Shown: positions 14,246 to 64,000 of the stretch, piece after piece | How the letters are laid out: each line of letters opens with the position of its first letter | How positions within the stretch are numbered: position 1 is the first letter of the stretch | NCBI GenBank assembly: GCA_965263355.1 | Contig: CBDHHL010000056.1 | Coordinates: 864,001-928,000 of the forward strand | Length of the DNA: 64,000 bases | Source: Leptolyngbyaceae cyanobacterium | Lineage (GTDB): Bacteria; Cyanobacteriota; Cyanobacteriia; Phormidesmidales; Phormidesmidaceae | Reading direction: 5' to 3' | Translations under genes and position numbers: made by a program | Notes under the pieces: model-generated | What the model was told of the DNA's origin: nothing | Seen by the model: only the letters and a program-made list of their open reading frames with translations | Database searches by the model: none

Positions 14246-15658
14246 CTAAAGCTTAACTAGTGTGCGCTCATCAGCATTTGTATCCATTGGGGTGTCTATT
14301 TTCCAGGTTTCAATCTCTACATCTCTCATCACACTCTCGATCTCTTCATTAGCATATCGGTGCATTAATGGATCTGAAATGGGAATTTGGTAGGCATGGG
14401 GCTGAAACAAACCATAGGGGGTGACACGATAAATCTTGTCGAAGTTGCGATAGTATCCACCCAGATCCACATAGTCCCATCCATTACGCTTCTGCAACAA
14501 TCCGTACAATGCTGAAGCTGTTATGCAGGCAAATAGATTGGAGAGAGGATTCCGTCCTTTCTGGGCAGTCAAGGGGGTCTGAGAGAAATCAATAAACCAC
14601 TGTTTCACACCATCTGGGAAGACAATATTTAGTTGGTAAACAATATTCCAACGAAAATGTTCCCGAAAGAGAGAATAACGCAATTCTTGAATAAAGGTGA
14701 CTAAATCATTTGCGATCGCATCCTCAATCGCTTCACTCATTAGTTTAATGTCATAGTTCTCAGGGTTGCCATCGACCAATTTGTCGGCAATGGCTACGGG
14801 ATAGAAATCTAACTCATTGCGATCGTCTCTGATCTGTTTAACAAAGGAGCAACCACCGGTTTGATGGTTATAGTTAGTCTGATCAAATTCAATCGAATCA
14901 CCAGGCTCTAACGGAAAGACCTTATCCTCCAAATCAGGACAAATATGTTGCACATCTTGGCAAAACTTCTCCCGAGTAACCGGAAAAACAATCTGATTCA
15001 AAAATGCACTACCATTCACATACTTAAAGGCATTGGCCCCTGGAGAAATTGCTTTAGGGTTAATCAGACTAATGTTGTATAGCAGCTGGCCATACTGATC
15101 ATAGGGAAATGCCAGACTCCTATTGTACTGATAGTTGCACTCCATCATGGGCTGCCAAGTAGCCAACAAAAAGTCAATTTGAGGATACTGGCCCAGAATA
15201 AAGGCAGTTGTATCAAGGCTCAATTCTGTATCTACGCAATTCCAGAAAACCCCTGACTCATCCTGTAGTAAAACACCAAACTCAGGTACGCGATTTTCAC
15301 TTCGGGTTGACAGGAAGTTGGTCGAACCACCAATTTCTAATTCTTGAAATTCATCAATGGCGTATATTTTCTTGTAGCCCAACTTTTTTAATGAGCCCTC
15401 GATCAATTCATCCCTGGGAATAATTACTTCCACGGTTTTAGGCAGATGGGCAAGGGAACGAATATCAAAATGATCTAAATGTTTGTGAGAGATTATAAGA
15501 ATGTCAAAATCCGGGATGTTGTCAATCAGGACATCGCGTTTAGGGCAGACATCTAAAATGCCCTCTTGATGAGGATCCCAAAGGACAGGATCCATCATAA
15601 ATTTAGCATCTTGAGTTTCGATAAAAATAGACGCATGACCAATCATGTCAATTTTCAT
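14246..15658 (-). CDS. Metallo-beta-lactamase-fold protein (UlaG/CMAH-like N-terminus)
   Basis: GHASIFIE...DPVL and HxHxDH motif SHKHLDH. Confidence 0.85.
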   Translation of the reverse strand: MKIDMIGHASIFIETQDAKFMMDPVLWDPHQEGILDVCPKRDVLIDNIPDFDILIISHKHLDHFDIRSLAHLPKTVEVIIPRDELIEGSLKKLGYKKIYAIDEFQELEIGGSTNFLSTRSENRVPEFGVLLQDESGVFWNCVDTELSLDTTAFILGQYPQIDFLLATWQPMMECNYQYNRSLAFPYDQYGQLLYNISLINPKAISPGANAFKYVNGSAFLNQIVFPVTREKFCQDVQHICPDLEDKVFPLEPGDSIEFDQTNYNHQTGGCSFVKQIRDDRNELDFYPVAIADKLVDGNPENYDIKLMSEAIEDAIANDLVTFIQELRYSLFREHFRWNIVYQLNIVFPDGVKQWFIDFSQTPLTAQKGRNPLSNLFACITASALYGLLQKRNGWDYVDLGGYYRNFDKIYRVTPYGLFQPHAYQIPISDPLMHRYANEEIESVMRDVEIETWKIDTPMDTNADERTLVKL

Positions 15659-15768
15659 AATTTTTTACCTCCTAAAAAACGTGAGTTGAATCTGAATCAG
15701 ATTGCGTGATTAAGTAAAGTCAGTTGTAAATCAATGTAGAATTCTGGCCGAAAACATGCTCATCTAAA

Positions 15769-16641
15769 CTAGGCTGTGGTCGCTGTTTTCTCTAGGGTTA
15801 GCCTAGCCGCACTAATCTCAGGCATATAGGTTTGAACAACATTGTCTAGAAGGCTATCTTGGCCTTCTACCAGGGCATACTCAGCCGCTACATGATCAAT
15901 ATTGGACGCATTGATGAAATTTTCGGTCAGCGAGATTCCGGCCTCCAGATTTCTCACTTGATGCCACCATTGGCTGGGGGTGAACATAAGGTCACCAGCT
16001 TCCTGAATACAGGTATAGCCTTCAACATTTCTATATTGTGGACAGACCTCTAAATCCACATTAAAACCATCGATAGAGCCACCATTGAGATTATCCGTTT
16101 CATTGGCTGGATAAAACAACCACTCTTTTTTTCCACTCAACACAGCATTCCATGCTGACGTGCCCATTACATCACGATGCATGGGAGAACTCGTATTTTT
16201 AGCCCCAATATACATCCAGCGCAGGCTGTAGTCAGCGGCTTCACCTTGGAATAACTCTGGAGGTATCCGTCTCACCCAATTTTCAAAGTAATCGGGCACC
16301 GTATAGTCATCCAACAGCTCAGGGTAATCGCTACTAAATGTCCAGTCTGCTAAATAGTAAGGAGGCGTATCTTGGGTATTTTTTGCGTAGTCCAGATATT
16401 CAGCCAGCAAAAAATTTCGTTTATCCTCTCGATTCTTACCTCGACTGGCCACAACCTGGGTTTGACCATATCGTTGAACAAACTCTTGTCCAGTCCATTT
16501 CTGATAAGCAGGCCATTGTTTTGCCACACCACGAATCACTACCGGCTTACTCTTCAAGAGATAGTGATTGATAATTGTTGGGAAATCAGCTTTTTCTAAA
16601 ACATCAACAGGTTGTAGGGTAGGATAATTAGTCAAGTTCAT
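15769..16641 (-). CDS. JmjC (cupin_8) Fe(II)/2-oxoglutarate oxygenase, JMJD6-like
   Basis: KPVVIRG...WPA, RWMYIG...MHRD..GTSAWNAVLSGKKEW and PSQWWHQV (HxD...H triad). Confidence 0.9.
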   Translation of the reverse strand: MNLTNYPTLQPVDVLEKADFPTIINHYLLKSKPVVIRGVAKQWPAYQKWTGQEFVQRYGQTQVVASRGKNREDKRNFLLAEYLDYAKNTQDTPPYYLADWTFSSDYPELLDDYTVPDYFENWVRRIPPELFQGEAADYSLRWMYIGAKNTSSPMHRDVMGTSAWNAVLSGKKEWLFYPANETDNLNGGSIDGFNVDLEVCPQYRNVEGYTCIQEAGDLMFTPSQWWHQVRNLEAGISLTENFINASNIDHVAAEYALVEGQDSLLDNVVQTYMPEISAARLTLEKTATTA

Positions 16642-16737
16642 ATCAGTAGATTTCCATCTTTATAAAAAATTACGGCTTTTCTAAGCTTGGGTGTGTAAGG
16701 GCATGCTTGCAAGGAGTTAAAAACATTTGAATCAATA

Positions 16738-18072
16738 TCACGAATTCTCACCTGTTGCAGTATCTTGCTCAACTTGCAATAAGGGAGCATGGCGATAGGC
16801 AATAGATGCAGTCATTATGGATAATCCGCCCATAATGATGAACATCAAGCCAATGCCTCGACCTGGCCCGGTTCCAATAATCTGGCCGACCCCCTCCGAC
16901 CAAGGGCCTTCAAACTCCATGGCAGGCTCTAGGATTAAGTCTACGACTGAGCCAGATGATATAGCAGTGATTGTGGCTACCGACGTGATAGCGTTGTTTA
17001 GGGCAAACACCCGGCCTTGTAATTCTGGTGCAACATATTTCTGAAAAATAACTTGAATAGAGCCATCGACAAGTGGTAACGTTGCAAGAAAAAGAAAAGC
17101 GGCCACTGCGATTAGAATTAAGGACGGTCTGACTCCGCTAGCAATTGCTTCCAATCCTCCTAAAAACATACAACCACAAATCACTGGAACTAGGCGCTCC
17201 TGACGGCTTACCCAAGTACCCATCAAAATGCCGCCCACAACTGTCCCTAACTCTGCTGTCGAGATCACAAAACCCAGGGTTTCAGTAGTGGTTAAGTTTA
17301 AAATCAGGGGAACGAACAAAATCGTTCCTACAGTCGATATGAATGCATAAACGGCTCGTACAGTAATTAAACTGAATAACCCGGTTTGGTTAACCAAGTA
17401 AGTCCATCCCTGCTTAATCGGTTGAATAAATGAATTGTTTTCACTATCTACTTCAGGCAAGGACACCTGTAGCTCTGGAATTTGGATGAGTAGAATTGGA
17501 ATAATACCGATTAGAAAGCTAACACAGTTAACCAATAGAATGCCTTGGATCTGGATGATGGTTAGGAGTAATCCAGCTGCCACTGGAGCCCCGAGCTGTG
17601 CGATCGCATCTCCCACACGAGTTAAACCACTGGCCCGGGCTAAATCTTTCGGTTCAACTAATAAGCTAACTGCAGACTTAAATGATAGGCTTTCAAATTC
17701 TGTAAATATGGCACTTAAGCACGTAAAGAGATATATGTGCCATATCTTTAAGGAACCGGTAATGAACAGGACAGCCATGGCCAAAAAGCACGACGCAGAG
17801 CCAATTTCGGAAATAACAATTATCCATCGACGGGACCAACGATCAACAACGACACCTGATAGGGGTGCCAGGAAAAAGGTTGGTAATGTTATGAATAAGA
17901 TACCAAGGGTATAAAAGTTAACCGACTCTGTAGTTTGAAGAATCCAAATATCCAGAGCAAATCTTGCCAGACAGTCGCCGATGGTGGAGACCATAGATCC
18001 TAGCCATAGGAAAACAAATGTATTCATTCCCCTTGCTGCTGGTTTTTCGGTGATGATTGATGATTGGCCCAT
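16738..18072 (-). CDS. MFS efflux transporter (DHA3/MefA-like, NRPS-associated)
   Basis: ~12 TM segments, GVVVDRWSRR, LQGRVFA, GTGPGRGIGL. Confidence 0.9.
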   Translation of the reverse strand: MGQSSIITEKPAARGMNTFVFLWLGSMVSTIGDCLARFALDIWILQTTESVNFYTLGILFITLPTFFLAPLSGVVVDRWSRRWIIVISEIGSASCFLAMAVLFITGSLKIWHIYLFTCLSAIFTEFESLSFKSAVSLLVEPKDLARASGLTRVGDAIAQLGAPVAAGLLLTIIQIQGILLVNCVSFLIGIIPILLIQIPELQVSLPEVDSENNSFIQPIKQGWTYLVNQTGLFSLITVRAVYAFISTVGTILFVPLILNLTTTETLGFVISTAELGTVVGGILMGTWVSRQERLVPVICGCMFLGGLEAIASGVRPSLILIAVAAFLFLATLPLVDGSIQVIFQKYVAPELQGRVFALNNAITSVATITAISSGSVVDLILEPAMEFEGPWSEGVGQIIGTGPGRGIGLMFIIMGGLSIMTASIAYRHAPLLQVEQDTATGENS

Positions 18073-18240
18073 AATTTCCTTAAACTAAGAGCAAAGAGTG
18101 AATACGTCCTCATGCTCATTTTCCCTAACTTATCTAACGTCACCTAATAGTCAGCAACTACAAATCAGCATTCATAATGATTGAGCAATTTTCCTGTCAG
18201 GGATATACCTAATTCAAGATTCCTCATAACTATTCAGCCT

Positions 18241-20202
18241 TTAAGTTGGATAATCTCCAACAATCATCCTATAAAAGTCATTATTTTTCCCAAGTTCAAT
18301 GGCTCCTTCATATGACAAGTGCCCAGCATCTCTATATAATAGGGCTGAATCAAGGTGGGTTTGACATCGCAATGAATTGCATGTCAGTTTATCGACACGG
18401 ACAACACGATAATTATCCTTGATAATATCTAACAAATCATAGGCTCTTAAGCGACTAAATCGCATCTCATCCACAGCGAAATCGCACGCATCTAAGTCTA
18501 TTCCCATCCATGCGGCGTGTTCTAAGCAGTGACCTAAATCATTGCCATTGGAAGCTGGGGGAGAAAAGACGACAGGAGTGATTCCCATTATTTCTAGCTC
18601 ATTAAGTGTATTGGTTAACTCTTTGAGAGCAATCTGAAAACCAGCATTCAAAAACTCTCCATTGCGAGACAGAAGGGTACTATTTTCTGATAAAAATCTA
18701 TTATCTAAAGGGGAGGATAGTACGGCATACTTAACTGTATTGTTTGTTTTTAACCAGTCACGAACTTTGCCGGAAAAATCAAGGCATCCTTCAGACCAGC
18801 TGATAGTCTGGTCCGGTGGCTCGAAAGATGCAATATCAAAAAAAGGAGAACAGACTCTTTTAGTCATCTGAATGATTTTTGCATCGGGATTAGATGCCAT
18901 AATCGCTGGCACTAAATGCATTGCAAACGAGTCTCCCCAAACGACAATTTCTGGCTGATCACTTGTCCTACAATCAGGCGACAGTGTGAAAGAATTGTCA
19001 CAAACATTACTCAATCCGGAACTGAGTTCTCGATTGTTTACCATGGCTTGATTAGAGGGCCCCCTATGGGTGATTCGGGCACTGAACCCACCCGTAATGT
19101 CGCCAGCCCACCCTAACAAAGCCAACAGTAACAGTCCAGCGATCGCCAATGAAGTCACTATTTTTGTTTCTACACTTTTTCTAAATGGCGTTTCTACATA
19201 CTTCCAGCTCAAATAGGCGAGGGGAAATAGCAGTACAACCAATCCAGCTAACAGTAAACTATTAGGCTCAGTTAAACTTCGATGCCTAGCAAACGCAAAA
19301 ATAGAATGATGCCAAAGATACAAACTATAGCTAATTAAACCAATCCCGACCAATATGTTCGTTCCGAGCAATTGACCAACTAAGGTCTCTGATGAAGAAA
19401 ATAAAATAATAAGCCCTGCTCCGACCGTTGGTATTAAAGCATGGAAACTAGGAAACGGAGTAGCATGATTAAACGCATAGATCGAATATCCAATCATCAG
19501 TAGACCAATCAAGCTTATGACTTCATTGATAGCTCTACGATCAAATAGAAGAGTAAATCTGGATCTTCCATATAAAAGCAAAAATGCAATAATTGCACCA
19601 ATGGCAAACTCCCAGGCTCTTGTTGGCAGAATGAAGAAGTTTGCTGAAGGATGGTGAAATGCTTCCCACTGTGATAGACCTAGACTTGTAAGCGCGATGA
19701 GCATCAAGGACGTAAATATCCAACGCTTCTGTAAGCGCCACATTAGAAGTAGAAACAGTGGAAAGAGAAGATAGTATTGTTCTTCAATGGCTAAACTCCA
19801 AGTATGTAAAAGTGGCTTAAATTCATTGCTTGTTTCCCAATATCCTGTTTCTTGCCAGAAAAAAATATTTGAAGCAAATATAGAAACTGCTATCAGGCTA
19901 CGGGAAAAGGCTTTCATGTCCCATTCTGGTAGCCAAAACCAGGCAAAAATTAGGGAAGCAAGCGTTACTAAGAATAGTGCAGGGAAAATACGCCTGATCC
20001 GTCGCTCATAGAAGTTGAGTAAGGAAAACGTGCCCTGCTCTTTCTCAGTAAAAATTATGGTTGTAATCAGATAACCACTGATAACAAAAAAGACATCTAC
20101 TCCAATAAATCCACCTCTAAAATACTGACATCCTGCATGAAACAAAATTACCGAAATCACCGAAATAGCTCTAAGGCCATCAATTTCAGGACGATATTTC
20201 AT
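18241..20202 (-). CDS. Acyltransferase family 3 + SGNH domain (OafA/YrhL-like O-acyltransferase)
   Basis: YRPEIDGLRA, GVDVFFVISGYLIT and HTWSLAIEEQYY; SGNH motifs GDSFA and DAGHLS. Confidence 0.93.
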   Translation of the reverse strand: MKYRPEIDGLRAISVISVILFHAGCQYFRGGFIGVDVFFVISGYLITTIIFTEKEQGTFSLLNFYERRIRRIFPALFLVTLASLIFAWFWLPEWDMKAFSRSLIAVSIFASNIFFWQETGYWETSNEFKPLLHTWSLAIEEQYYLLFPLFLLLMWRLQKRWIFTSLMLIALTSLGLSQWEAFHHPSANFFILPTRAWEFAIGAIIAFLLLYGRSRFTLLFDRRAINEVISLIGLLMIGYSIYAFNHATPFPSFHALIPTVGAGLIILFSSSETLVGQLLGTNILVGIGLISYSLYLWHHSIFAFARHRSLTEPNSLLLAGLVVLLFPLAYLSWKYVETPFRKSVETKIVTSLAIAGLLLLALLGWAGDITGGFSARITHRGPSNQAMVNNRELSSGLSNVCDNSFTLSPDCRTSDQPEIVVWGDSFAMHLVPAIMASNPDAKIIQMTKRVCSPFFDIASFEPPDQTISWSEGCLDFSGKVRDWLKTNNTVKYAVLSSPLDNRFLSENSTLLSRNGEFLNAGFQIALKELTNTLNELEIMGITPVVFSPPASNGNDLGHCLEHAAWMGIDLDACDFAVDEMRFSRLRAYDLLDIIKDNYRVVRVDKLTCNSLRCQTHLDSALLYRDAGHLSYEGAIELGKNNDFYRMIVGDYPT

Positions 20203-20359: not shown

Positions 20360-21256
20360 CTATTTCCTCACACTCATCCTCTTAATACCCATCTTCTTAG
20401 ATACCGGTAAGTTCATTTCTGGAATATATTTCCGCATTACGGCATCCAATGCAGTGTCACGCCCTAAAGTCAATTGATAGTAAGTAGATACAGCATCAAC
20501 ATTAGAGTGATTAATGAAGTTTTCCGTTAAGGATATGCCAGCTTCCAAATTTCTTACCTGGTGCCACCATGAGCTGGGAGTAAATACTACATCACCAGAT
20601 TCCTGAATACAGCTATACCCCATTGCTTTTTTGAACTTGGGATAGAGAGTAGCGTTCACATTAAAGCCATCAACTGGACTATTGTAACGATTCACTGGGT
20701 AAAGATTTTCAGTCTCATCGCCTGAGTAAAATAGCCAAGCTTTTTTTCCACTCAAAACAGCATTCCAAGCAGACGTATCTAATACATCACGATGCATCGG
20801 TGAACCAGTATTTTTTGCACCAATATACATCCAGCGTAGAAAGTAATCGTAATCTTTTCTCTTAAGAAGATGTGCAGGGATACGCCTTATCCAGTTTTCA
20901 AAATAATCTGGAATATCATAATCATTGATCAGTTCAGGGTAATCAGAGGCAAACCGCCAGGCAGATAAATAATAAGGACGCTCATCTGTAGTAGTTTGCA
21001 TATACTCCAAGTAATCAGAGAGTGTAAAAATTTTCTCTTCTAGCTTGGGCACATGTATCCTAGCAATAACTTGAACCTTACCATAGGTTTGGATAAACTC
21101 TGGACTTGTCCATTTTTTATAAGCAACCCATTCCTTCGCAATTCCTCGTAGTAATACAGGTTTACCCTTTAAAACATACTGCTCCATGACTGTTTGATAG
21201 TCTGGATTGTCTAAAATATCGACAGGCTGTAAGTTATCGTTTGGAGCTACATTCAT
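20360..21256 (-). CDS. JmjC (cupin_8) Fe(II)/2-oxoglutarate oxygenase, JMJD6-like; paralog of 15769..16641
   Basis: RWMYIGAKNTGSPMHRDVLDTSAWNAVLSGKK and PSSWWHQVRNLEAGISLTENFIN. Confidence 0.9.
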   Translation of the reverse strand: MNVAPNDNLQPVDILDNPDYQTVMEQYVLKGKPVLLRGIAKEWVAYKKWTSPEFIQTYGKVQVIARIHVPKLEEKIFTLSDYLEYMQTTTDERPYYLSAWRFASDYPELINDYDIPDYFENWIRRIPAHLLKRKDYDYFLRWMYIGAKNTGSPMHRDVLDTSAWNAVLSGKKAWLFYSGDETENLYPVNRYNSPVDGFNVNATLYPKFKKAMGYSCIQESGDVVFTPSSWWHQVRNLEAGISLTENFINHSNVDAVSTYYQLTLGRDTALDAVMRKYIPEMNLPVSKKMGIKRMSVRK

Positions 21257-21337: not shown

Positions 21338-24300
21338 TCAATTGAGGTAGGCTTGGAGCTGTTGTGCTAAAACTTTTACATGCTGAGGATCACGCATCAT
21401 AGACATGTGGTCTCCAGGTACCCAATCAAAGGTGACTTGCTGAGCTAAATCATGCCAACCCAATGTTGGGTCATCGGCCTGGTTGGCAACACCATCCTTA
21501 GCTTGCAGTAGGACTAATTCTCCGGAATAAGGTTGTGGGACATAGGTTTGTGCGGCTTGTTCATGTCCGGTTTGAACTTGAACAATACAATTTAATTGTT
21601 CTACCCCAAAGCCTGGGCTCAAGGAGATATTACGTCGCTCGGCTTCCGAGATAATGTAGGTGAGCTGATCTTCCCAGCTCATCGTGCGTAAGTGGCGATT
21701 TAACCCATTGAGTTCATCGGAGGGCAACGCAAGGTGACGACCGACGAGTTCAGCTAACAGGTCAGTCGCATCAGGAATTTGATCAACCGCCATCAAGGAG
21801 TTCACATCCATAAAAATCAGACGAGGCGGTTGTTCGCCATTACGCGTTAGTTGCTGAGCCATTTCCCAGGCAATGGTTCCTCCCAAACACCAACCCGCTA
21901 GATGGTAAGGGCCTTCAGGTTGAACTGTTTTGATCACTTGAAGGTAGTCCTTAGCCATGGTCTCAATGCTATTGTCGGCGGGTTGACCGGGTTCAAAACC
22001 GCGTGCTTCTAAACCATAGATGGGACGGTCCTGGCCCAGGTACGAGACGAGCTTTTGATAGTTCAAAACACTGCCACCACCAGGATGGATCAGGAACAGC
22101 GGTGGCAAGGTTCCCTGGGGTTGTAATGGTGTGAGCGGTGACCAAGTTGGGGGCTCACTACCCTGTTGGATGGTTTGCTGCAATAGCATGGCCTGCTGTT
22201 CAATGGTTGCTCCCTGGAATAGGGTCACCAGGGGTAGGGTATGCCCAAGCTTCTCGTGGATACGGGACATTAACGATACGGCCAGGAGAGAATGGCCTCC
22301 GAGATCAAAGAAGTCGTCTACGATGCCGATGGATTCTACCTTGAGTACCTCAGACCAAATCTGGCTGAGCTGTAACTCTAAATGGTTGCGGGGTGCAACA
22401 AATAGCCGATCGGATGGAGGCTGATATTCTGGAGCGGGTAGAGCCTTGCGGTTGATTTTGCCGTTAGGGGTTAATGGTAAGGCATCCAAATATACGAAGG
22501 CATTTGGCACCATGTAGTCTGGTAGTTGTTCTTTGAGAAACTCTCGTAGGGAGATCGGGGAAATATCTTCATTAGAGGTCACTACGTAGACCACTAACTG
22601 CTTATTGCTGGGGTCATCGGCTCGGACGATTGCGATCGCTTCCCGCACCTGAGGATGTTTCTGAAGTGTAGCTTCCAGTTCACCCAGTTCAATCCGGAAC
22701 CCTCGCAGCTTAACCTGTTGGTCACGACGTCCCAAGAATTCTACATTGCCATCTGCTTGATAACGGGCCAGATCGCCAGTGCAGTATAACCGTCCTGGGC
22801 CAAAGGGATTGCGGATAAACTTCTCAGCCGTCAGCTGAGGACGATGTAAATACCCCAGACTCAGACCCGCGCCCCCAATATATAGGTCTCCAGTCACGCC
22901 CACGGGCACGGGCTGCATGGCCGGATCGAGAACATATAGCTGGGTATTGGCAAAGGGCCGACCAATGGGAACGGCCACATCGGCAGCATTATCATCTCCC
23001 TGGAGTTCAAAATAACAGCTATCAATAGTTGCTTCGGTAACGCCGTAGGAATTGATCAATCGCGTTTGCTCGCCACAGATGCGGCGGAACTTCTGGTATT
23101 CAGCCATGGACCAGAAATCAGAGCCCACCACTAAAACCCTCATAAAATTAAGGTTTTGGTGGCTGTTTTCCAGGTAGTTAGCCAGTTGTCTAAAGACAGC
23201 GGGGACAAATTCTGCACAGTCCACAGCTTCTCGGCAGATCAGACTGTAAAGCTGTTCGGCATCCAGCAGAATTTCCCGAGGACAGAGCACCAGCTTGGCA
23301 CCGGAACAGAGGGCTCGTACCCAATCTCCAGTAAATACATCAAAGGAGAAGCTGGCCATTTGTAAATGGCTGGAAGTACGCTGCTTGAGCTGGTACGCAT
23401 CTTCCCAGGCAAAATAGGCGTTTACCAAGCTGCGATGAGCCACCGCCACCCCCTTGGGTTGGCCCGTTGAGCCAGAGGTGTAGATGACATAGGCACGGCT
23501 ATCTTGGGCCACGGGTGCCACGGGATTCCCCACGGGGGCATGGACAATATCTTGATGGGTATCTAAACAAATCACCTGGGCATCCTGCTGCGGCAGACGA
23601 TCTAGACCAGATTTTTGCGTAATCAACACCGAGACAGCGGCATCCTGCAGCATGTAAGCAATACGTTCCTGGGGATACCGAATGTCCAGGGGAAGGTAGG
23701 CCGCGCCCACTTTGAGAATGGCTAAGAGACTGACAAGTAGTGCTGGAGAACGTTCCAGATAGATACCCACCAGGGTGTCGCTACCGACACCCTGGGCCTG
23801 AAGAGTATGGGCTAGCTGATTAGCTTGGGCATTTAACGCCTGATAGGTTAGCGTGTCCCCATTAAAAACAACGGCAATGGCATCTGGCTGGCGTTCAACC
23901 TGTTGTTCAAACAGTTGGTGAATACACAAATCTTGGGCATAGGTGACCTGGGTGTCGTTCCATGACACCAGGACTTGCTGCCGTTCCGCCTGACTGAGCA
24001 AGGGTAGCTGGGTAACCTGTAACTGGGGCTGAGCTAAAATTCCAGCTAGAAGAATTTGGAAATGGCGGGTTAGGCGCTCAATAGTGTCTGGCTTGAATAA
24101 ATCGGTACTGTATTCCCAAATGCCTTCAATGCCAGCCTCACTTTCTGTCATGGTGAGGGTGAGGTCAAACATCGCCGTGACAGTTTCAGGCTCCAGGGTG
24201 GTCATGGTGAGACCAGGCAACTCTAAGGCCGCATTGGATGAGCTGTGCCAGTCAAACATCACCTGAAACAGGGGAGAATGGCTCAGATTACGATCGGGTT

Positions 24301-51900: not shown

Positions 51901-52689
51901 GGCCAACCCCCGCAGTAAGCCAATATTAGATTTGAGATAGTCACAGTAGGGCTTACGGGCCTGTTCGCAGACTGTCGCAAATTCCTCACCGACAAAGGTA
52001 TGTAACATCAGGGAAACAATCCCCGCTTCGGGATCATGACCATGTTTGGCCCGTGCCTGCCGATAGAGGGCAATCTTTTCCGCCAGGGGTTCAATACCCT
52101 GATCGAGTAAATGGGTCAGTAAATTAGCACCGATTTTCCCGGCGTTAGCAAAGGTTTGGGGATTACTCGCTGCGGTGATCCAAATGGGCAGTTGGGGCTG
52201 AATTGGTGTGGGATAAATGCGCACCGTTGTGGGTTGTCCCTTGCCATTGGTAACAGCAATGCTCTCCCCTTGCCAGAGTTGATTTAAGGTGATGATGTTT
52301 TCAAACAACAGCTGATGCCGCTGTTCATAAACCTCTGGACACCAGGCAAAGTCATCGGGGTTCCAGCCCGAGGCCAGGGAAATACCCACCCGACCATTAG
52401 ACAAATTGTCCACCATAGCCCAAGCTTCTGCCAGGGCCAGGGGATGGTGTAATGGCATAACAACGCTGCCTGCCTGCAGCCGAATACGCTCGGTTACCTG
52501 GGACAACGCCGCATTTAAGACCGCTGGATTGGGGTATAAACTCCCAAACTGGGTAAAGTGACGCTCCGGGGTCCAAATGCTGGAAAAGCCGTGCTCATCA
52601 CCAAACTTAGCGCTGTCGATTACCAGACCGTATTTCTCGTCAGCCAGGGCATCTTCAGTGCTGGCAAAAAACATAAGACCAAATTTCAT
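48904..52689 (-). CDS. PKS protein: luciferase-like flavin monooxygenase (MupA/Atu3671 type)-DH(C-half)-KR-ACP
   Basis: WTPERHF...YPNP and GWNPDDF (LLM); FYQ...LDACHQ...LPTRI (second DH hotdog); TGGLGHFG...YAAAN (KR); GMDSL (ACP). Confidence 0.92.
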   Translation of the reverse strand: MKFGLMFFASTEDALADEKYGLVIDSAKFGDEHGFSSIWTPERHFTQFGSLYPNPAVLNAALSQVTERIRLQAGSVVMPLHHPLALAEAWAMVDNLSNGRVGISLASGWNPDDFAWCPEVYEQRHQLLFENIITLNQLWQGESIAVTNGKGQPTTVRIYPTPIQPQLPIWITAASNPQTFANAGKIGANLLTHLLDQGIEPLAEKIALYRQARAKHGHDPEAGIVSLMLHTFVGEEFATVCEQARKPYCDYLKSNIGLLRGLAQSRGQDIDFATLSERDLDTFVNFLYERFATSRGLIGTPESCLELVRDLDQIGVDEIACLLDFGPSKQAVIEHLPYLNELKERYRQVDVQRVSVADSGAYDNLVRSSASQGATSVGNSSIAKASLEEVRARCQARQSGADFYQLLAKHGLQLGETYRGIQQFWLGHQEVLAEIKTPAGIVANTNALEVYAPVLDACHQVLGATLFTPLGGSSPPDGNDGLDNGFSEPDSLYLPTRIDSFEVHGPLGREGWSHAVLKQLGGENQDTIQGDVRIFNAAGEVTVEVLGLQMQRTSPMADSDQTPPLGHDWLYELVWQLAPLDDIGATDDRVKEEATGRWIIFCDRKNLGTTLATQLQNQGHVCELVYCQGAETSEIIDTPADIGLERSSIHSLDPTDPRAMDNLLKQLLSADKPPCKGIIHLWSLDVTPSQKTTLASLQADQALTVTSLLHLVQSVTTVTPNANLATTSPPKLWIITEDVQTVGGETAAEITPRSIAQAPMWGLGRVAATEFPQFWGGLIDLDSTAPLSGSVQQLQHQLLRPSSPSADAQIVFRNGQRYIVRLVRSAKTQVPPEAITFSTNATYLITGGLGHFGLGSAQWLASKGVKSLALTGRRAPSGRALQVIETLQQNGVNVQVLQADVADAAAMAEAIETVQAIAPPIKGIFHIAGATQQKTIPEITETDLTAMLRPKVWGTWNLHQLTLDLDLNFFFCTSSMSPIFGSQGLGHYAAANYFLDIFATYRQQLDLPGLTVNVGALAGGGMALASPEGEKYTTQIGLHLTTPENLLDVAGGFILPDRQNSSTSGPVTNLIVAEMDWSIFKPLYESTTGKRLLTEIGHGDNQINLGQQDELWQELEKIPQMDERQEQVVLYLQRTVAQALGHREGASLIDPHRGFFDMGMDSLMAVALKNKLEASLAIALPTVLIFEHPNILSLAKYIMVDVLEWGAANNPDLSHADFDVSSVDVESPSEIPELSDQLRTLSEESLDDLISKKLAKALEGD

Positions 52690-52693
52690 GTCC

Positions 52694-55600: not shown

Positions 55601-58105
55601 TGTTTGACTACCTGCCAGATCGGCTGGGGCCAAATTCGCATTTTCTAAAGCTTCCCAGCTCACTTCTAAAAGCAGCCGCTGCTGTGGATCTAAGCTGGTA
55701 GCCTCGCGGGGAGAAATACTGAAGAACTCTGCATCAAACTGATCAACATCACTCAAGAATCCTCCCCATCGACTGGTATTGAGTCCAGCAAGTGCACTGA
55801 CATTCCAACGCTCATCGGGCACTTGAGTAATGGCATCCTGCCCAGTTTGTAGCAATTCCCAGAATGCCTCCGGAGTGGGCGCCCCTGGAAAGCGACAGCC
55901 AACACCAATGATGGCAATCATGTCTGGATCGACCTGAGGGGAACCCAACCCATTTGATGCAGGGGAAGAGGAGGGCACTTGATTTGCCTGGGCTGGGGAG
56001 GACACTGAATCACCAGACAAATATTGCGTCAAATTGGCCAGGGTTGGATAGTCGTAAAGCAATGTAGGGGAAATCTCTTGCCCTAGCCAATCTTGCAACT
56101 GCCCCGATAATCCCACCGCTACCGCAGAACTGAGCCCATAGTGGGCCAAGGGTTCATAAATATCAATCTCATGGGGAGCCACCTGCAATTGTGCCGCCAC
56201 CTGAGCAATTAACCAAGCCTGAATCGTTCCTGCATCGGGAAAATCAAGCACTTTAACGGGCTGCTTTTCCACCTTTGGTAAAGGAACTCGGCTTGTTTCA
56301 CCCAGCTGCCAACTCGCAACAGAATTCAAGCCATCGTTGGCAAATTCAGCTTGACATGTTCGTCGCCTCACCTTGCCGCTGGATGTTTTCGGCAAACTAC
56401 CCGGCTTTAGCAGTTGAACTGCATATAGGGGTAAATCATGGTACTCAGATACAGCCCTGCGCATCTGGCAAAAAATCTCATCAGGAGCCAGTTTGCGCAA
56501 ATAGCGACGCTCCACTTCATGAACCACCACCAGCTGTTCTTGTCCTTCAATTTCAAGTCCAAAAGCGGCCCCACCACCCGCTCGCAGGGCCGAATGACTG
56601 CGCTCAATGGTCAATTCAATATCCTGGGGGTAGTGATTTCGTCCCTGGATAATAATAAGATCCTTAATCCGTCCAGTGACAAAGAGTTCTTTATCTCGAA
56701 AAAAACCTAAATCACCTGTTCGCAAAAATGGTCCTTCTCCGGTGTCTGCAGTAAAGGCTTGAAAGGTCTCTCTTGTCTCCTGAGGGCGTTGCCAATACCC
56801 CTGGGCAACATTGCCACCTGCCACCCAAATTTCACCTACCTGCTCAGGCAAACAGCGGGTTAAATCTTCAGGATTAACAATAATAATCTCTTGCTCTAAC
56901 CAGGTTTGCCCACATCCAACAATCCCTTTACTATAAAGCTGTTTAACAGCTTGATTTTCATCGGCTACAACTACTTGGTTCTGACTTAACGCATCCTCCT
57001 GAACCTCGAAGATCACGGGTGCTTGTGCCTTTAATCCTCCCGAAACCAACAAACTGGTTTCTGCCATACCATAACAAGGATAAAAGGATTGCCAATGAAA
57101 CCCACAGGACTCAAAAGTAGCTGAAAACCTCCGTAAGGTGTCTTCCCGTACGGGCTCTGCGCCACTATATGCTACATCCCAAGAACTCAAGTCTAGGCTC
57201 GCTCGTTGTTCAGCAGTAGTTCTCTGAATACACAACTCATAGGCAAAATTAGGGGCACCACTGGTGGTGGCACGATAGTGGGAAATAGCCTGCAACCACC
57301 GCAACGGTTTTTGTAAAAATGCAACCGGTGGCATTAGAGCACAAGGAATACCTAAATAAAGAGGCTGCAGAACATTACCAATCAATCCCATATCATGATG
57401 TAGGGGAAGCCAACCGACAAAAATAGTCTGATCGGTATGCCCAAAGGCAGCCTCAATCATGCGTTCGTTGTACATCAAATTGGCATGGGTCAGCATGACG
57501 CCTTTTGGAGTACCGGTTGACCCAGATGTGTACTGCAGGAATGCCAATGTTTTTGCAGTGATACCGGCATCTTGCCAGGGGAACACCTGCTCGGTGAGAA
57601 GATCCTTATCAGTCACCAACCATTGAACAGGAGAAGAACACCCAGGAGACACTAAATGCAACTGGAGTTGCGCCAATAACTTGGTGGTTGTAAGGACTAC
57701 ACTAGCATCAGCATCGGCAACAATGGCCTGCAGTCGGATTGCATTCCGGTTAGCCCGAGGAGGATATGCAGGCACAGCAACCAAGCCTGCATAGAGACAA
57801 CCAAAAAAGGCCGCTATAAATTCAAGACTTGACGGATAAACCAGGAGTGCGCGCTCCCCTGGAGTGCAGGTCTGCCGAAGTTGAGCAGCAATGACACGAG
57901 CCTGACAATCCAGCTCTAGATAAGTTAAACGACCCGATTCAGACTCCCCATCTTGGAGAAAAATATAAGCAGTTTGGTGCGGTTGATGCTGGGCTCGATA
58001 GCGCAACAGATCTATCAATGTATCGGAACAAGCTGGCCTGCTCGAACTACATTCCTCATCTAGATAACTCTTGCCTGAATTCGCCCTCATTGATATCTTC
58101 ACCAA
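52694..58105 (-). CDS. Starter PKS: FAAL-ACP-KS-AT-DH(N-half)
   Basis: [41 protein letters not shown] and PKTSSGK; ACP YGLSS; KS DTACSSS; AT GHSVG/HAFHS; HPILG...DHQV...P first DH hotdog. Confidence 0.95.
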
Positions 58106-59203: not shown

Positions 59204-61309
59204 ATGCGTTATTTTGACGAGTATTGCGAAATCCATCTTGAATCAGATGCGGCACCCTTTAAGTGGGTCTTTAAGAGTGGCGAGTCAATTCAGATTAGGT
59301 TTGGTGTCTCGCTTGCCCGTCATCCCGAGCGTGGGTACGTCACATTAGAAGCTCGAGATCCTCAGGGAGGGGTCTCAACTCAGCAGATTGCAGCCCACGA
59401 AGTCGGTATTACAGAAAACAGTTTTAAGCTTTTTGCGGTCATCCTACCAGCCGGATCAAATGGAACAGGTTATCGGTATCGGGTGGGATATAGAGATCGA
59501 CAGGGTCATATGCACGCGAGCCAACAAACACGCTGTTTGATGGTGTGTGATGAAGCGCTCCTCTCCATGCAAGAAGTTGAGTCTGTTTTGTTAGATGTTG
59601 TTGATGGTAATGTCCTTTATGGTCCTCGACCGACAGTTCCAATGTCCGCCAGCCCTCAAAACTGGGCCAATCGATTGTTTTATTCGTTGATTATCGACCG
59701 ATTTTCCCAAAGTACCACCGAAAATCGGCAAGGTTTGGGCTTTGTCCCCTATAATTTGACTTCTCCTTACACGAGCCATGGGGGAACTTTACAGGGAATT
59801 CGGGAAAAGTTGACCTACCTTAAGGACCTGGGGATTGGCGCGCTGATGGTCAGTCCAGTCTATGTGAATGAAGCCAGTGGTTATCATGGTTATCACCCGA
59901 TTCATCTGCTGATGGTGGATCCTCGCTTGGGTACGTTGCAGTTACTGCAGGATTTGGTGGAGGAAGCTCATGCCCTCGATATAGCCGTCATCTTAGATGT
60001 GGTGGTGAATCACCTGGCAGATAACATTGATTGGGAAGAATATGGGGGACCTCCCGGCGGAGAATTCAAATATGTGCGGGGGGATAGTGCCGCTGTGATG
60101 CCCTTTCCGGTGGAGACGCGCAATACCCTGTTGTTTCATGGCCCTGAATATACCGACCTGGTCAACCAACGGTTGTTTGGATTCTTGGAAGACTGGCGCA
60201 CTGAGAAAACCTATGTGCGTCAGCTGCTGGTAGATCATCTCAAGTACTGGTTGGCCGTTACAGATGTGGATGGTTTTCGATATGATTCGGCCCGTCACGT
60301 GGGTACAGACTTTTGGCAACCGTGTGTGGCCGAAATTTCGAGATATGCTCGCTATCTGGGCAAAACTGATTTCTTGCAAATTGCTGAACATGCGGGCAGT
60401 TGCCATGAGGAACTGACGGCTTATAATGCGGCCAATTTCTCAGGTTTTTTGGACTATCCTACCCATTACACGTTGAAACATGCGCTTGGGGATGGAGATT
60501 GGTTGAGCGGGTTTGCAGACTATTTTTGTGGGTTACTAATGCCCACGTCAACTTATGTTCAAGGTTGGCGCAACAACTTAATGTTTTTGGATAATCAAGA
60601 TACAACACGGATTTTACATGAGTTTTTAATCCGTCATGCGGATCGGGCCAAGGCAACCAGTTGTTTACATTTTGCGTTGGCTTGTTCCATCCTAGGTCCT
60701 CAGAGGCCAGCCATTTATGCAGGGACCGAACAAGAGTTCTCTGGCGCGCTGGGAATGCATCAACGGGAGGATACAGGCGAGTGGATTGGCCATGACTGCC
60801 ATGTGCGGGAGGATATGTTTGATAACCCGTCCTGTGTTTGGAAGTTTGGTCCTATTAATCGCAAGGTGTTTCAGCCCTATAATCAGGAACATGAAACGTT
60901 TCAGCTGATTCAGTCACTGGCAGATGTTCGTAGGCGGATGGCAAATATTCAGAGTTGCGATCGCACCATCTTAATTTCAAAAGATCATGGTTTACGCTGT
61001 GTTTTACTCCACGATGCCCAAGGCACTCCCCCCTGCTTGGTCGTGATGAATTTAGGCATACAGCATCTGGCAGAAACTAATATTTCTATTCCCGAAAGCC
61101 ACGGCCAGATTGTGGGTCTGGAAGTGCAGGCTGCCACAGCTGGCGGACAGCTAGCGTGGATAGATCAAACCCTACAAACTCAACTGCCGCCATTTGCCTT
61201 TGTGCTAGCGCAGTTGGATATTCGCCACCGGCCTATTGTCAACGAACAATGGCATCCTTTTAAGGAGCAAACTCTGGTCGCTCGTCAAGCAGAAGTGGCT
61301 AATGCTTAA
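59204..61309 (+). CDS. GH13 alpha-amylase family glycoside hydrolase/transglycosylase
   Basis: IIDRF, HGGTLQGI, YHGYHP, DVVVNH, DGFRYDSARH (nucleophile), IAEH (acid/base) and FLDNQD. ATG at 59204 preferred over TTG at 59195. Confidence 0.9.
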   Translation: MRYFDEYCEIHLESDAAPFKWVFKSGESIQIRFGVSLARHPERGYVTLEARDPQGGVSTQQIAAHEVGITENSFKLFAVILPAGSNGTGYRYRVGYRDRQGHMHASQQTRCLMVCDEALLSMQEVESVLLDVVDGNVLYGPRPTVPMSASPQNWANRLFYSLIIDRFSQSTTENRQGLGFVPYNLTSPYTSHGGTLQGIREKLTYLKDLGIGALMVSPVYVNEASGYHGYHPIHLLMVDPRLGTLQLLQDLVEEAHALDIAVILDVVVNHLADNIDWEEYGGPPGGEFKYVRGDSAAVMPFPVETRNTLLFHGPEYTDLVNQRLFGFLEDWRTEKTYVRQLLVDHLKYWLAVTDVDGFRYDSARHVGTDFWQPCVAEISRYARYLGKTDFLQIAEHAGSCHEELTAYNAANFSGFLDYPTHYTLKHALGDGDWLSGFADYFCGLLMPTSTYVQGWRNNLMFLDNQDTTRILHEFLIRHADRAKATSCLHFALACSILGPQRPAIYAGTEQEFSGALGMHQREDTGEWIGHDCHVREDMFDNPSCVWKFGPINRKVFQPYNQEHETFQLIQSLADVRRRMANIQSCDRTILISKDHGLRCVLLHDAQGTPPCLVVMNLGIQHLAETNISIPESHGQIVGLEVQAATAGGQLAWIDQTLQTQLPPFAFVLAQLDIRHRPIVNEQWHPFKEQTLVARQAEVANA

Positions 61310-61618: not shown

Positions 61619-61630
61619 AGCAAACATTAT

Positions 61631-63082
61631 ATGACAAGCGACAAGTCTTCCCATGATATAGATTCTCACGCTGCTGAAGAACAGAAACCCTGGTCTGCTC
61701 GCTTGTTTTTCCTATCTGAGTCGATTCGGAACTTCATTCTATTTTGGTTTGGCCAATCACTCTCTCAAATCGGTACCCGTCTAACTGGATTTGGCCTTGG
61801 CATTTGGGTCTATCAGAATACCCATGCTGTCACTCAACTGAGCCTGGTTTTCTTTATCACCACATTACCAGGGGTGCTGCTGACACCGTTTATTGGTGTA
61901 CTGGTGGATCGGTGGAATCGGCGCTGGATTATCTTCTTTAGTGATTGTGGTGCGGCCCTTGTCACAGCAGCATTGCTCCTGCTACAAATGCATGGCCAGT
62001 TAGAAATTTGGCATACCTATATTTCTGCATTTGCCACCTCACTGTGCGGCTCCTTTCAAATGCTCGCTAAGGGAGCGGCCATTCCCATGATGGTGAGCAA
62101 AAAACAGTTGGGGCGCGTCAATGGTATGTTGCAATTTAGTCGAGCCCTAAGTGAAATTTCCGCTCCCGCCCTGGCGGGTGTTTTGGTGGGAACTTTAAAT
62201 CTAAGTGGTCTATTATGGCTAGATTTAAGCAGCTATGGCATTGGCCTAATTACCTTGCTATTTGTTTCGATTCCTCAACCTGAAACCGAGCCAGACTCCG
62301 ACTTAAATCGCTCTTTTCTAGAAGACATTTCCCAGAGTTGGCAGCTGATTTCTTCCCAAGTAGCCCTGCTAGTTCTGTTTGGATTCATGGGAGTTCACTT
62401 TTTTGTTAATGGCATGACTCGGGTATTGCTCAATCCGTTAGTGTTGTCATTCTCCAGTGCCCAGACCTTTGGCAGTGTAATGTCCCTAGGCAGTATTGGC
62501 ATGGTGATCGGCAGTATTCTGATGAGTATTTGGGGAGGCGGTCGCAATCAGTTAATCAGTTTGTTGGGGGCTTCGGTTATCAGTAGTGTGGGTTTGGTAA
62601 TTACTGGACTCAAACCATCGATAACTCTGATTTCCTGTGGCCTGTTTATTTCGTTCTTCACGTTGCCGATTATCTTGGGCACCAATCAAGCCATTTGGCA
62701 GCAGTCTATCCAACCGAGTTACCAGGGGCGAATCCTGTCTCTAGTGGGAACGTTTACAGGTTTTTTGGCCGCCATTGGGACCATTAGCGCCAGTCCGTTG
62801 GCCGATGTGATTCTAGAACCGATGTTTACTGATCAAGGACTGTTGGCGAGTACCGTTGGCAAATTGATTGAAACCGGTAGTGGGCGAGGTATTAGTTTCC
62901 TGATAATTTTAGAAGGTGGTTTGCTTTTGAGTACATCGTTGTTGGTATATGCCTACGTGCGATGGCAGAATCTAGAGTATGTGCTTGTAGAAGATTCTTC
63001 TGAAATTGTTGAACCATCAGAAATAGCAGTTCCAGAACCGCCAGAAACAGAAACAGAAGCCTCTCTGACATCAGTCAACTAA
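61631..63082 (+). CDS. MFS efflux transporter (DHA3/MefA-like, NRPS-associated)
   Basis: GVLVDRWNRR, YQGRILS and GSGRGIS; same family as 16738..18072. Confidence 0.9.
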   Translation: MTSDKSSHDIDSHAAEEQKPWSARLFFLSESIRNFILFWFGQSLSQIGTRLTGFGLGIWVYQNTHAVTQLSLVFFITTLPGVLLTPFIGVLVDRWNRRWIIFFSDCGAALVTAALLLLQMHGQLEIWHTYISAFATSLCGSFQMLAKGAAIPMMVSKKQLGRVNGMLQFSRALSEISAPALAGVLVGTLNLSGLLWLDLSSYGIGLITLLFVSIPQPETEPDSDLNRSFLEDISQSWQLISSQVALLVLFGFMGVHFFVNGMTRVLLNPLVLSFSSAQTFGSVMSLGSIGMVIGSILMSIWGGGRNQLISLLGASVISSVGLVITGLKPSITLISCGLFISFFTLPIILGTNQAIWQQSIQPSYQGRILSLVGTFTGFLAAIGTISASPLADVILEPMFTDQGLLASTVGKLIETGSGRGISFLIILEGGLLLSTSLLVYAYVRWQNLEYVLVEDSSEIVEPSEIAVPEPPETETEASLTSVN

Positions 63083-63106
63083 TCATTTCATTTTAACTCA
63101 ACGAAC

Positions 63107-64000
63107 ATGGACATCTCCCTGTCAACACCAGCACCAATTTTTATTCTTTGTTGCGATCGCTCCGGCTCTTCCTTATTGCGATATATCATCGATACCCATC
63201 CAGCCATTGCCGGTCCCGCTGAACTTAATTTAGGCCAAGTGTGTCGCAGTCTTTACTATCTAGTCACTGGGACCTTGGGCGAAACCATCTATGCTGAGAG
63301 TTCTGAAAAAGATAAACAAGTAATTGCCAGGGTACGTCAATTAGTTTTAGAACTCATGGAGGAATATGTTGCTGCCAAAGGAAAACGATTTTGGTGTGAA
63401 AAGTCTCCTCAGAACCTGCAGTTTCTCACTATTTTAAAAGCTGTTTTTCCCGAAGCTAAATATATTTGCCTATATCGCCATGGCATGGATGTTGTTCATT
63501 CTTGTTTAGAGAGTAGTCGATTATCTCTCATGCCAGAACAGCTAAGCTATGTTTGTCAGAATTCTGGCAGCATTGTGGGGGGGATGGTACAAAACTGGGT
63601 AGAAAAGACGCAACAGATCCTGACATTCGAGCAAACATATCCAGAGCAATGTTTTCCAATTAAGTACGAGTCCTACGTTGTTAATCCAGCCGCTACGCTC
63701 CAACCTATGTTCGAGTTTCTCGGGGTAGACTGGGATGAAACATTGTTAGATTCCGTCTTTTCAACTCAGCACGATCTAGGACCAGAGGATCCAAAAGTTG
63801 CTTATTCTAACCGAATTCATCAGGGGTCCATTGGCAAAGGGGCACAGATAGATACATTGCGAATTCCCTCGCCATTGATGACCCAGATGAATCAACTGCT
63901 GGAGACATTGAGTTATCCTACGGTAGGTGCAGACTGGGGCATAGATGCCTATGACAACTTGATCAACAACAGCTTTGAGAAAACGCAATCGGACAATGGG
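63107..64000 (+). CDS. PAPS-dependent sulfotransferase (Sulfotransfer_3/TPST-like); 3' end truncated by the window edge
   Basis: Not in the ORF track because it has no stop. Manual translation gives MDISLSTPAPIFILCCDRSGSSLLRYIIDTHP (5'-PSB loop), WCEKSP, LYRHGMDVVHS (3'-PB) and KYE...FLG. Confidence 0.88.
   Translation, partial: MDISLSTPAPIFILCCDRSGSSLLRYIIDTHPAIAGPAELNLGQVCRSLYYLVTGTLGETIYAESSEKDKQVIARVRQLVLELMEEYVAAKGKRFWCEKSPQNLQFLTILKAVFPEAKYICLYRHGMDVVHSCLESSRLSLMPEQLSYVCQNSGSIVGGMVQNWVEKTQQILTFEQTYPEQCFPIKYESYVVNPAATLQPMFEFLGVDWDETLLDSVFSTQHDLGPEDPKVAYSNRIHQGSIGKGAQIDTLRIPSPLMTQMNQLLETLSYPTVGADWGIDAYDNLINNSFEKTQSDNG

Follow-up and report, generated by a model that had tools for sequence, protein, structure and literature searches.

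An intact cyanobacterial FAAL-PKS-NRPS gene cluster that probably encodes a beta-amino-lipohexapeptide with an iso-linked D-aspartate

What does a complete lipopeptide assembly line with three consecutive basic residues produce in a cyanobacterium, and does it belong to any family already described? The question is raised by a 64,000-nucleotide stretch of a Leptolyngbyaceae cyanobacterium (assembly GCA_965263355.1, contig CBDHHL010000056.1, positions 864,001 to 928,000; hereafter the window), which a preliminary description had read as an orphan cluster for a heavily oxidised, cationic, possibly sulfated beta-amino-lipohexapeptide. From its domains, their order, active-site motifs and adenylation codes, all observed directly, we infer a product together with its ring closure, its sulfation and any glycosylation. 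The window holds an intact cluster of a fatty acyl-AMP ligase (FAAL), polyketide synthases (PKS) and nonribosomal peptide synthetases (NRPS), probably for a beta-amino-lipohexapeptide that is likely 3-amino-4,5-dihydroxy-acyl-Hyp-Asn-(beta-linked D-Asp)-Lys-Orn/Dab-Orn (Hyp, hydroxyproline; Orn, ornithine; Dab, diaminobutyrate), closed as a macrolactam, further hydroxylated and O-sulfated. The cluster is probably an orphan, and an exported, membrane-active defence compound would be the most likely role by analogy.

Every gene discussed is an uninterrupted open reading frame (ORF), and five large ORFs without internal stops span 58105 to 21338 on the minus strand. Searches with Pfam and NCBIfam give the order FAAL-ACP-KS-AT-DH(N) / LLM-DH(C)-KR-ACP / KS-AT / ACP-AMT-(C-A-T)x3 / PhyH / racemase / (C-A-T)x3-TE, where DH is a dehydratase, LLM a flavin monooxygenase, AMT an aminotransferase, C, A and T are condensation, adenylation and thiolation domains, and TE is a thioesterase. 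These genes and domains are the following:

52694..58105, minus strand: FAAL-ACP-KS-AT-DH(N-half), fatty acid loading and first malonyl extension (Pfam, motifs)
52781..53188, minus strand: N-terminal half of the split dehydratase, catalytic His kept (PF21089, alignments)
48904..52689, minus strand: LLM (MupA-family flavin monooxygenase)-DH(C-half)-KR-ACP, similar to OcfI and CcsC, likely for alpha-hydroxylation and ketoreduction (TIGR04020)
51025..51552, minus strand: C-terminal half of the split dehydratase, catalytic Asp kept (PF14765, alignments)
45672..48902, minus strand: KS-AT, second malonyl extension (Pfam, motifs)
33624..45485, minus strand: ACP-AMT-C-A1-T-C-A2-T-C-A3-T (Pfam, codes, trees)
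32696..33511, minus strand: PhyH-family 2-oxoglutarate dioxygenase, likely a proline 4-hydroxylase (structure-database matches)
31838..32632, minus strand: Asp/Glu racemase family protein, likely for D-Asp supply (Pfam/NCBIfam, motifs, context of homologues)
21338..31807, minus strand: C-A4-T-C-A5-T-C-A6-T-TE (Pfam, codes, alignments)

Both KS triads are intact, as are the Lys/Ser/Tyr of the KR, the Lys of the AMT and every C and T motif, and each AT domain has a GHSxG and an HAFH motif; the meanings of these motifs, such as HAFH for a malonyl-type AT, are those that we take as established. The assembly line contains no epimerization (E), methyltransferase (MT) or enoylreductase motif, and the same E motifs were detected in a control NRPS. 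The only stretch of more than 60 amino acids left uncovered in the two NRPSs is a 130-aa linker. Over 13001-33000 and 44001-64000 the genes are free of indels in contigs from sequencing runs X1 (possibly the source sample) and X3. An X1 contig extends 6,313 bases beyond 64000. Run X4, from another study, covers both compared stretches in short pieces; its 36 listed coding differences comprise 25 synonymous and 11 non-synonymous changes and no stop, a tally made from 40 of 64 difference rows after dropping 2 intergenic and 2 X3-only rows. The flanks carry cyanobacterial genes (LmeA and an SLH-OprB porin), and the nearest homologues with a name are likewise from cyanobacteria; Rfam gave no match. 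There is very little doubt that the assembly line is real and intact. The colinear line given in the preliminary description (FAAL-ACP, two malonyl extensions, an aminotransferase, six NRPS modules and a TE, with neither E nor MT domains) was confirmed throughout, and no inactivating lesion was found.

The adenylation codes, read by motif anchoring with a pattern that missed some domains (including those of the three-Orn NRPSs discussed below), are DAHIITHVVK for A1 (Pro clade, likely Hyp), DATKVGEVGK for A2 (Asn), DARHFSLMVK for A3 (McyB2 clade, likely iso-linked D-Asp), DAEDIGNIVK for A4 (Lys/Arg clade), DVGEVASIDK for A5 (Orn or Dab) and DVGEVGSIDK for A6 (Orn). Two quick trees (89 and 51 rows, SH-aLRT support only, FAAL-type rows removed apart from one that remained in the first) both place A1 with Pro-type, A4 with Lys/Arg-type and A5 and A6 with Orn-type domains, each in a starred clade; the starred clade that A3 shares with the McyB2-type domain has support of 98 and 97, respectively. 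The residue labels of the reference codes in these trees are presumed. In A5 and A6, Glu at code position 4 and Asp at position 9 correspond to diamino-acid binding mode 2, described in the passages seen of PMC12042044 along with the polymyxin Dab code DVGEISSIDK. Because A5 has Ala at code position 6, the fifth residue is ambiguous between Orn and Dab.

At position 1, the PhyH enzyme would supply 4-hydroxyproline, and Hyp is preferred because the window holds no 4-methylproline genes. One of its two best structural matches, 7E01, has the database title phytanoyl-CoA dioxygenase, and we take it to be a trans-4-proline hydroxylase. At position 3, the racemase would supply D-Asp: it is 46% identical to the mcy-type racemase, and its homologues follow DARHFSLMVK modules in three other genomes (G001, G055 and G173). 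The C domain after A3 has about 50% identity to ordinary C domains and 29-30% to post-epimerase C domains; it is not of the post-epimerase type, which fits a D-Asp bound by way of its side-chain carboxyl. Scanning metagenomes with the racemase gave 129 pattern matches, none confirmed, and plasmid searches with the racemase, the sulfotransferase and the GH13 protein gave distant matches only.

These assignments favor the string Hyp, Asn, iso-linked D-Asp, Lys, Orn/Dab, Orn with reasonable confidence. What speaks against it is that no exact characterised match for DAHIITHVVK, DARHFSLMVK, DAEDIGNIVK or DVGEVASIDK was found in open-access text, that PhyH scores the leucine hydroxylase GriE (5NCH, E 7.7e-69) and 7E01 (E 1.3e-68) equally, and that the racemase falls below the cut-off for both the cysteate and the aspartate racemase models. 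A different third residue, with A3 activating D-cysteate or D-Glu, or an alpha-linked D-Asp, would accord with a code that shares only DARH..K with the McyB2-type DARHVGIFVK, with the 93.7 bits of the racemase on the cysteate racemase model, and with a homologue encoded beside a cysteate synthase in G255. We consider this improbable: among five genomes a cysteate synthase matched in one only (G572) and in none of the three with the identical code and racemase (in G173 the gene lies on a 5.15-Mb contig of a 5.2-Mb genome); the McyE-type Glu domain falls outside the starred clade of A3; and the following C domain argues for the side-chain linkage. Cysteate in particular was rejected on the evidence of those three genomes. 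With Hyp-Asn-(beta-linked D-Asp)-Lys-Orn/Dab-Orn as the preferred string, the beta-amino-acyl hexapeptide and residue order proposed earlier hold up in codes and trees, and the proposal of Asp or Glu at position 3 narrows toward D-Asp. Of the proposed Orn-Orn end, position 6 stands and position 5 may be Dab. The term cationic needs some moderation: set against the three amines, a free alpha-carboxylate and a possible sulfate would leave a net charge of about +1 to +2.

Stand-alone A-T-TE or C-A-T-TE proteins with DARH-type codes occur elsewhere (L107 in G097; L173-L174 in G572), one directly after a racemase homologue; these are suggested to be small iso-Asp-type pathways.

In the part of the line that would build the lipid tail, a dehydratase is divided over two genes, its N-terminal half closing the FAAL protein and its C-terminal half standing behind the LLM domain (TIGR04020, 490 bits against a cut-off of 244). 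A search with the LLM protein found 80 loci with 13 LLM-bearing ORFs, six of which show the same split; these occur in cyanobacteria, one Herpetosiphonaceae and two Bryobacterales metagenome-assembled genomes. G173 and G055 have the split as well. Since the split recurs in other genomes and the X1 contig spans it without gaps, it is no local accident, and a sequencing error was ruled out on the same grounds. Occidiofungin has a tail with a matching vicinal diol. An unannotated Burkholderia locus has the same split and matches ocfJ/ocfI/ocfH by architecture and length, its LLM protein of 1107 aa corresponding to the 3324 bp of ocfI (gene table of the review PMC9494966, whose passages seen do not include the tail structure). 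The cyanochelin B locus likewise has a dehydratase split around the LLM, and cyanochelin B retains the alpha- and beta-hydroxyl at that module in the passages seen of PMC12628792, whose main text does not contain the word dehydratase. The term split dehydratase was not among the literature matches listed by a search that did not require it.

Because the LLM lies inside a split dehydratase as in these two clusters, the tail is likely a 3-amino-4,5-dihydroxy acid. For starters of C8 to C16, the calculated mass of a cyclic core with Lys-Orn-Orn would range from 927.54 to 1039.66 Da, with 983.60 Da for C12. FAAL would load the fatty acid, the first module would extend it with malonyl, the LLM would hydroxylate the alpha carbon and the KR would reduce the ketone; the split dehydratase, not dehydrating, may act as a joint between the two proteins, and after the second extension the AMT would install the C3 amine. 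As a hypothesis, the two halves form a docking pair. Among the aligned halves, the catalytic His is lost in one of eight N-terminal and the Asp in one of nine C-terminal halves; both residues are retained in the window, and dehydration is thus compatible with the sequence. The beta-amino part of the earlier beta-amino-hydroxy-acyl tail is borne out, and its hydroxylation is refined to the more likely 3-amino-4,5-diol.

Downstream of the second NRPS lie minus-strand genes, and divergent from the FAAL gene a plus-strand group whose last member ends at the window edge (Pfam/NCBIfam):

20360..21256, minus strand: JmjC/cupin-8 hydroxylase b (Pfam; HxD..H motif)
18241..20202, minus strand: AT3-SGNH membrane O-acyltransferase (Pfam)
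16738..18072, minus strand: MFS exporter a (Pfam/NCBIfam)
15769..16641, minus strand: JmjC/cupin-8 hydroxylase a, nearest solved structure JMJD6 (Pfam, structure-database comparison)
14246..15658, minus strand: metallo-beta-lactamase (MBL)-fold metalloprotein, doubtful both as a cluster member and as a hydroxylase (sequence and fold comparison)
59204..61309, plus strand: HasB-like GH13 alpha-amylase family enzyme, catalytic Asp/Glu/Asp kept (homologue alignment, context)
61631..63082, plus strand: MFS exporter b, likely HasK-like (Pfam, context)
63107..64000, plus strand: sulfotransferase, incomplete at the window end (complete in protein P0249)

The full sulfotransferase has 432 aa and a lipid-binding SCP2 domain at its C-terminus. 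It matches three of 401 genomes, one of them the search centre, and stands beside GH13 and MFS genes in all three; in two the cassette and a FAAL gene point away from each other, just like in the window, and the third contig is only 6,961 bp long. Membership of the sulfotransferase in the cluster is supported by its travelling with the HasB-like amylase and the MFS gene beside FAAL genes in other genomes, and the conserved context adds support to the possible sulfation of the preliminary description. The SCP2-fused enzyme would probably sulfate a hydroxyl on or near the lipid tail. The GH13 protein keeps its three catalytic acids in all five aligned homologues and matches 11 of 301 genomes, with NRPS or FAAL genes within about 20 kb in seven. 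HasB is a 670-aa alpha-amylase and HasK an MFS protein in the parts seen of the PMC5834425 supplement; a 670-aa homologue in G076, 58% identical to the window's GH13, adjoins an NRPS, the likeness to HasB and HasK being one of length and context, not of accession. AT3 acyltransferases flank GH13 in two further genomes, and the O-acyltransferase gene proposed earlier is present as AT3-SGNH. A tentative reading would have GH13 and AT3-SGNH attach a glucose unit and acylate it; the window encodes no GT2, GtrA or PMT glycosyltransferase. Counting against these roles, the sulfotransferase finds no counterpart at E<=1e-10 in the backbone relatives G173, G055 and G001, and in four of the 11 genomes with GH13 neither an NRPS nor a FAAL gene lies within about 18 kb of it.

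At 61089-61618 the 3' end of the GH13 gene is duplicated imperfectly in tandem (186 nt at spacing 283 and 64 nt at spacing 278); the X1 and X3 contigs skip 61277-61554, pointing either to an assembly artefact in the window or to a collapse in those contigs. A FAAL-PKS-AMT-NRPS cluster with the same cassette occurs in G133 (C7, L170-L172), where a second alpha-amylase with an apparent signal peptide lies inside the NRPS genes, an arrangement that would fit glucosylation inside and removal outside the cell.

Chain release falls to a TE with Cys3307 in place of the usual Ser, in a Trp-Cys-Leu context, together with Asp3334 and His3467. Its best structural alignment is to AB3403, the Asp coming directly after strand beta6, and SulM and ObiF are absent from its 30 PDB matches. 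A Cys nucleophile occurs in 27 of the 150 nearest TE representatives, behind many residue types; it is therefore not diagnostic, and macrolactam formation onto the beta-amine stays the default, which we favor slightly. A side-chain lactam would be rather unlikely and hydrolysis somewhat less likely again. In sulfazecin biosynthesis the ingredients, according to the passages seen of PMC11298585, are a Cys nucleophile, a stand-alone sulfotransferase, a terminal diamino-acid module and an iso-linked D-acidic residue, all of which have an observed or predicted counterpart in the window. A sulfazecin-like release, in which the side-chain amine of the last Orn is N-sulfonated on the carrier and the TE closes an N-sulfo-lactam, could be built from them. 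We give this very little credence: in SulM and ObiF the TE Asp follows beta7, and SulM has Gln-Cys-Asn (same passages), whereas the window TE resembles AB3403; the Cys is widespread; A6 is of mode 2 and not of the SulA3 diaminopropionate (Dap) mode; and the SCP2 fusion points to a lipid substrate. A monobactam TE was accordingly rejected on its Trp-Cys-Leu motif, its Asp after beta6 and the A6 code.

Further oxidation would come from the JmjC pair. Enzyme a is nearest to JMJD6 (E 2.6e-27), then to JMJD5 and FIH, and enzyme b is 56% identical to a. The JMJD6 likeness hints at hydroxylation of basic residues, and cupin-8 enzymes have been proposed for Leu/Asn hydroxylation in laxaphycin clusters (passages seen of PMC8471579); the pair may hydroxylate Asn and/or basic residues. 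Among 201 genomes, a JmjC search matched one, at 29-33% identity, and gave no hint of the substrate. The MBL protein is one of a family that counts at least 302 members, and the HxHxDH motif is invariant. Its best sequence matches are CmlA/FrsH, weakly (23% against CmlA/OcfG-type proteins); it has no CmlA_N domain in Pfam, and Foldseek with its predicted model (pLDDT 84) ranks FrsH and NAPE-PLD alike, hydroxylases and hydrolases not being separated. It matches four of 401 genomes, none with an adjoining modular NRPS, although G064 has a lone A-domain protein 7 kb away. The MBL protein was accordingly set aside as a firm fifth oxygenase: of the four or five oxygenases counted earlier, four are sound, and heavy oxidation by five is an overstatement.

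The closest relative is protein P0130, encoded on a 30,212-bp ENA contig: along the entire second NRPS it is 81% identical, and it shares the three codes of that protein and its Cys TE. A JmjC protein 99% identical to the window's lies on a contig of the same length. Of the cluster proteins that occur in the collection, only JmjC a has another member at 90% identity. Among the related lines compared, only P0130 has the same module order. P0327 combines Asn, Lys, the same A3 code and a Cys-TE; G001 (Phormidesmis) has a related line with reordered parts; and G173 and G055 have the split dehydratase, an Asp-type module, the same A3 code and the racemase, without AMT. In the Symploca genome G572, iso-Asp-type, Ser, Lys, Orn and Dap-type modules occur along with the cassette.

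Several of these loci deserve a description of their own. The sister clusters in G173 (L095-L097) and G055 (L099-L101) have two LLM-KR steps, Asp-type and DARHFSLMVK modules, the racemase, a Tyr-type module, a last A domain with an inserted oxidase and a CmlA-type hydroxylase, G055 adding GH13, GT2, GtrA, PMT and methyltransferase genes. The second polybasic line, in G572 (Symploca sp. SIO2C1; L160, L167-L168), lies on two contigs and is possibly not one cluster: one carries a FAAL-ACP-Orn-Dap-type start with the GH13-MFS-sulfotransferase cassette, the other Val, iso-Asp-type, Asp hydroxylase and Ser-Lys(E)-Orn(E)-Dap-type modules. In G945 (C198, L194) a Dap-type-code NRPS adjoins SbnA/SbnB, a PhyH protein 51% identical to the window's, a cysteate synthase and a HasB-like GH13. 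NRPSs with three Orn-type A domains occur in G542 (C79, L123-L125), G441 (C24, L127-L128) and G447 (L132/L134) with TauD, an FcoT-like thioesterase, an AMP-binding ligase, MFS, a TonB receptor and FecCD (Pfam on the G542 proteins); we take them to resemble isonitrile-lipopeptide (ScoA-E type) metallophore clusters, here in cyanobacteria.

A siderophore or metallophore, with Orn converted to hydroxamates or isonitriles and hydroxy-Asp/Asn as ligands, would be in keeping both with those three loci, whose Orn-type NRPSs accompany TonB receptors and iron ABC genes, and with cyanochelin B, a siderophore built from the same LLM/split-dehydratase start. We hold this to be improbable, since none of the 31 window proteins scanned (up to 64000) matches an Orn N-hydroxylase, TauD, FcoT, TonB receptor or FecCD family, and since the sulfotransferase is the last gene of the cassette in G133 and G572, with unrelated or GT2 genes behind it.

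Set against known systems, the window's lipopeptide line is closest in its start to occidiofungin (OcfJ/OcfI/OcfH, Burkholderia), sharing FAAL-ACP-KS..DH(N) / LLM-DH(C)-KR-ACP / KS-AT-ACP-AMT-C-A with an LLM 63% identical. Occidiofungin has three PKS extensions, E domains, a CmlA-type hydroxylase and an octapeptide, whereas the window has two extensions (one reducing PKS module fewer), no E, six modules, different residues and no CmlA_N, and adds the racemase, JmjC pair, GH13 and sulfotransferase-SCP2. The cyanochelin B line (Leptolyngbya sp. NIES-3755, CcsAB/CcsC) shares the split dehydratase around an LLM 62% identical, and its product keeps the alpha,beta-diol, but it has no AMT, and its thiazoline, beta-OH-Asp, TonB and iron ABC features are absent from the window. 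Microcystin and nodularin lines share a DARH-type A domain in the McyB2 clade, a free-standing racemase (McyF) and an ACP-AMT unit (McyE); the A3 code differs at five positions, and the window has a FAAL start and no Adda PKS, methyltransferases, D-Glu or Mdha modules.

The beta-amino start of puwainaphycin is made by a FAAL-PKS-AMT line, as are those of minutissamide and laxaphycin/heinamide, and the window has the traits of that family: a FAAL-ACP start followed by KS-AT, and an ACP-AMT-C unit with the PLP lysine before the first NRPS module. The window differs in its six residues, three of them basic, its iso-linkage and its lack of E and MT domains. Laxaphycin-type clusters also have cupin-8 hydroxylases and the proline 4-hydroxylase LxaN, a likeness by description and not by sequence (passages seen of PMC8471579). 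Hassallidin shares the HasB-like amylase and HasK-like MFS protein by context and length; its Thr/Tyr/Dhb nonapeptide NRPS with E domains and its glycosyltransferases are not in the window, which has a PKS-AMT start and an added sulfotransferase. Sulfazecin (SulM/SulN) shares the Cys-TE, a trans-acting sulfotransferase, an iso-linked D-acidic residue and a terminal diamino acid; unlike it, the window has Asp at the catalytic position after beta6 (position I), no Gln-Cys-Asn, an Orn-type and not a Dap-type code, and no Dap synthesis genes.

By its sequence, the cluster would work like an occidiofungin- or puwainaphycin-type line that has an iso-Asp step of microcystin type and accessory genes of hassallidin type, and it belongs to none of these families. 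Each part has precedent; the combination was not found described, and it does not amount to a new kind of system. Orphan NRPS clusters are common. No cluster or compound matching the codes or the combination of parts was found in open-access text, the scope of the search (MIBiG and subscription journals lay outside it), and the passages seen of PMC11411415 do not describe a matching cluster; to that extent the earlier statement that no known cyanobacterial lipopeptide matches is not contradicted. That the cluster makes a compound already described, or is silent, gains something from the many cyanobacterial peptides without a linked cluster and from that limit to open-access text. We regard it as highly unlikely, given the negative search itself, the lack of other members at 90% identity (JmjC a excepted), the intact genes and the mostly synonymous X4 differences.

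In Firmicutes, polybasic lipopeptides form a productive class of antibiotics; none of this make-up was found described from cyanobacteria. Being compact, at about 50 kb, the cluster could realistically be expressed, and its split dehydratase, Cys TE, GH13 gene and SCP2 domain had been left out of the preliminary description. If our reading is true, the split-dehydratase/LLM module would offer a portable route to alpha,beta-diols in cis-AT PKSs, and the GH13-MFS-sulfotransferase cassette a way to probe the role of HasB in hassallidin-type clusters. It is more speculative, and as a whole doubtful, that the cluster is the first to be defined in a cyanobacterial lipopeptide family with polybasic, iso-aspartyl, sulfated and glucosylated products, in which JMJD6-like enzymes hydroxylate the basic residues, that the dehydratase split around the LLM is a recurring cis-AT PKS alpha-hydroxylation module with its halves as a subunit docking pair, and that the HasB-like amylase is a lipopeptide transglucosylase.

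The left edge of the cluster is marked by a short element at 13585-13649, repeated elsewhere in the contigs of the runs; adjoining it is a 68-aa ORF (13686-13892, minus strand) with an iron-sulfur motif, seen by eye, that we take to be of CDGSH type. The unrelated left flank (3-13518) encodes a histidine kinase, a FIST protein, a Rieske oxygenase, LmeA, a DOPA dioxygenase, the porin, a pirin, an isochorismatase, a ChrR cupin, an SDR and a TetR protein.

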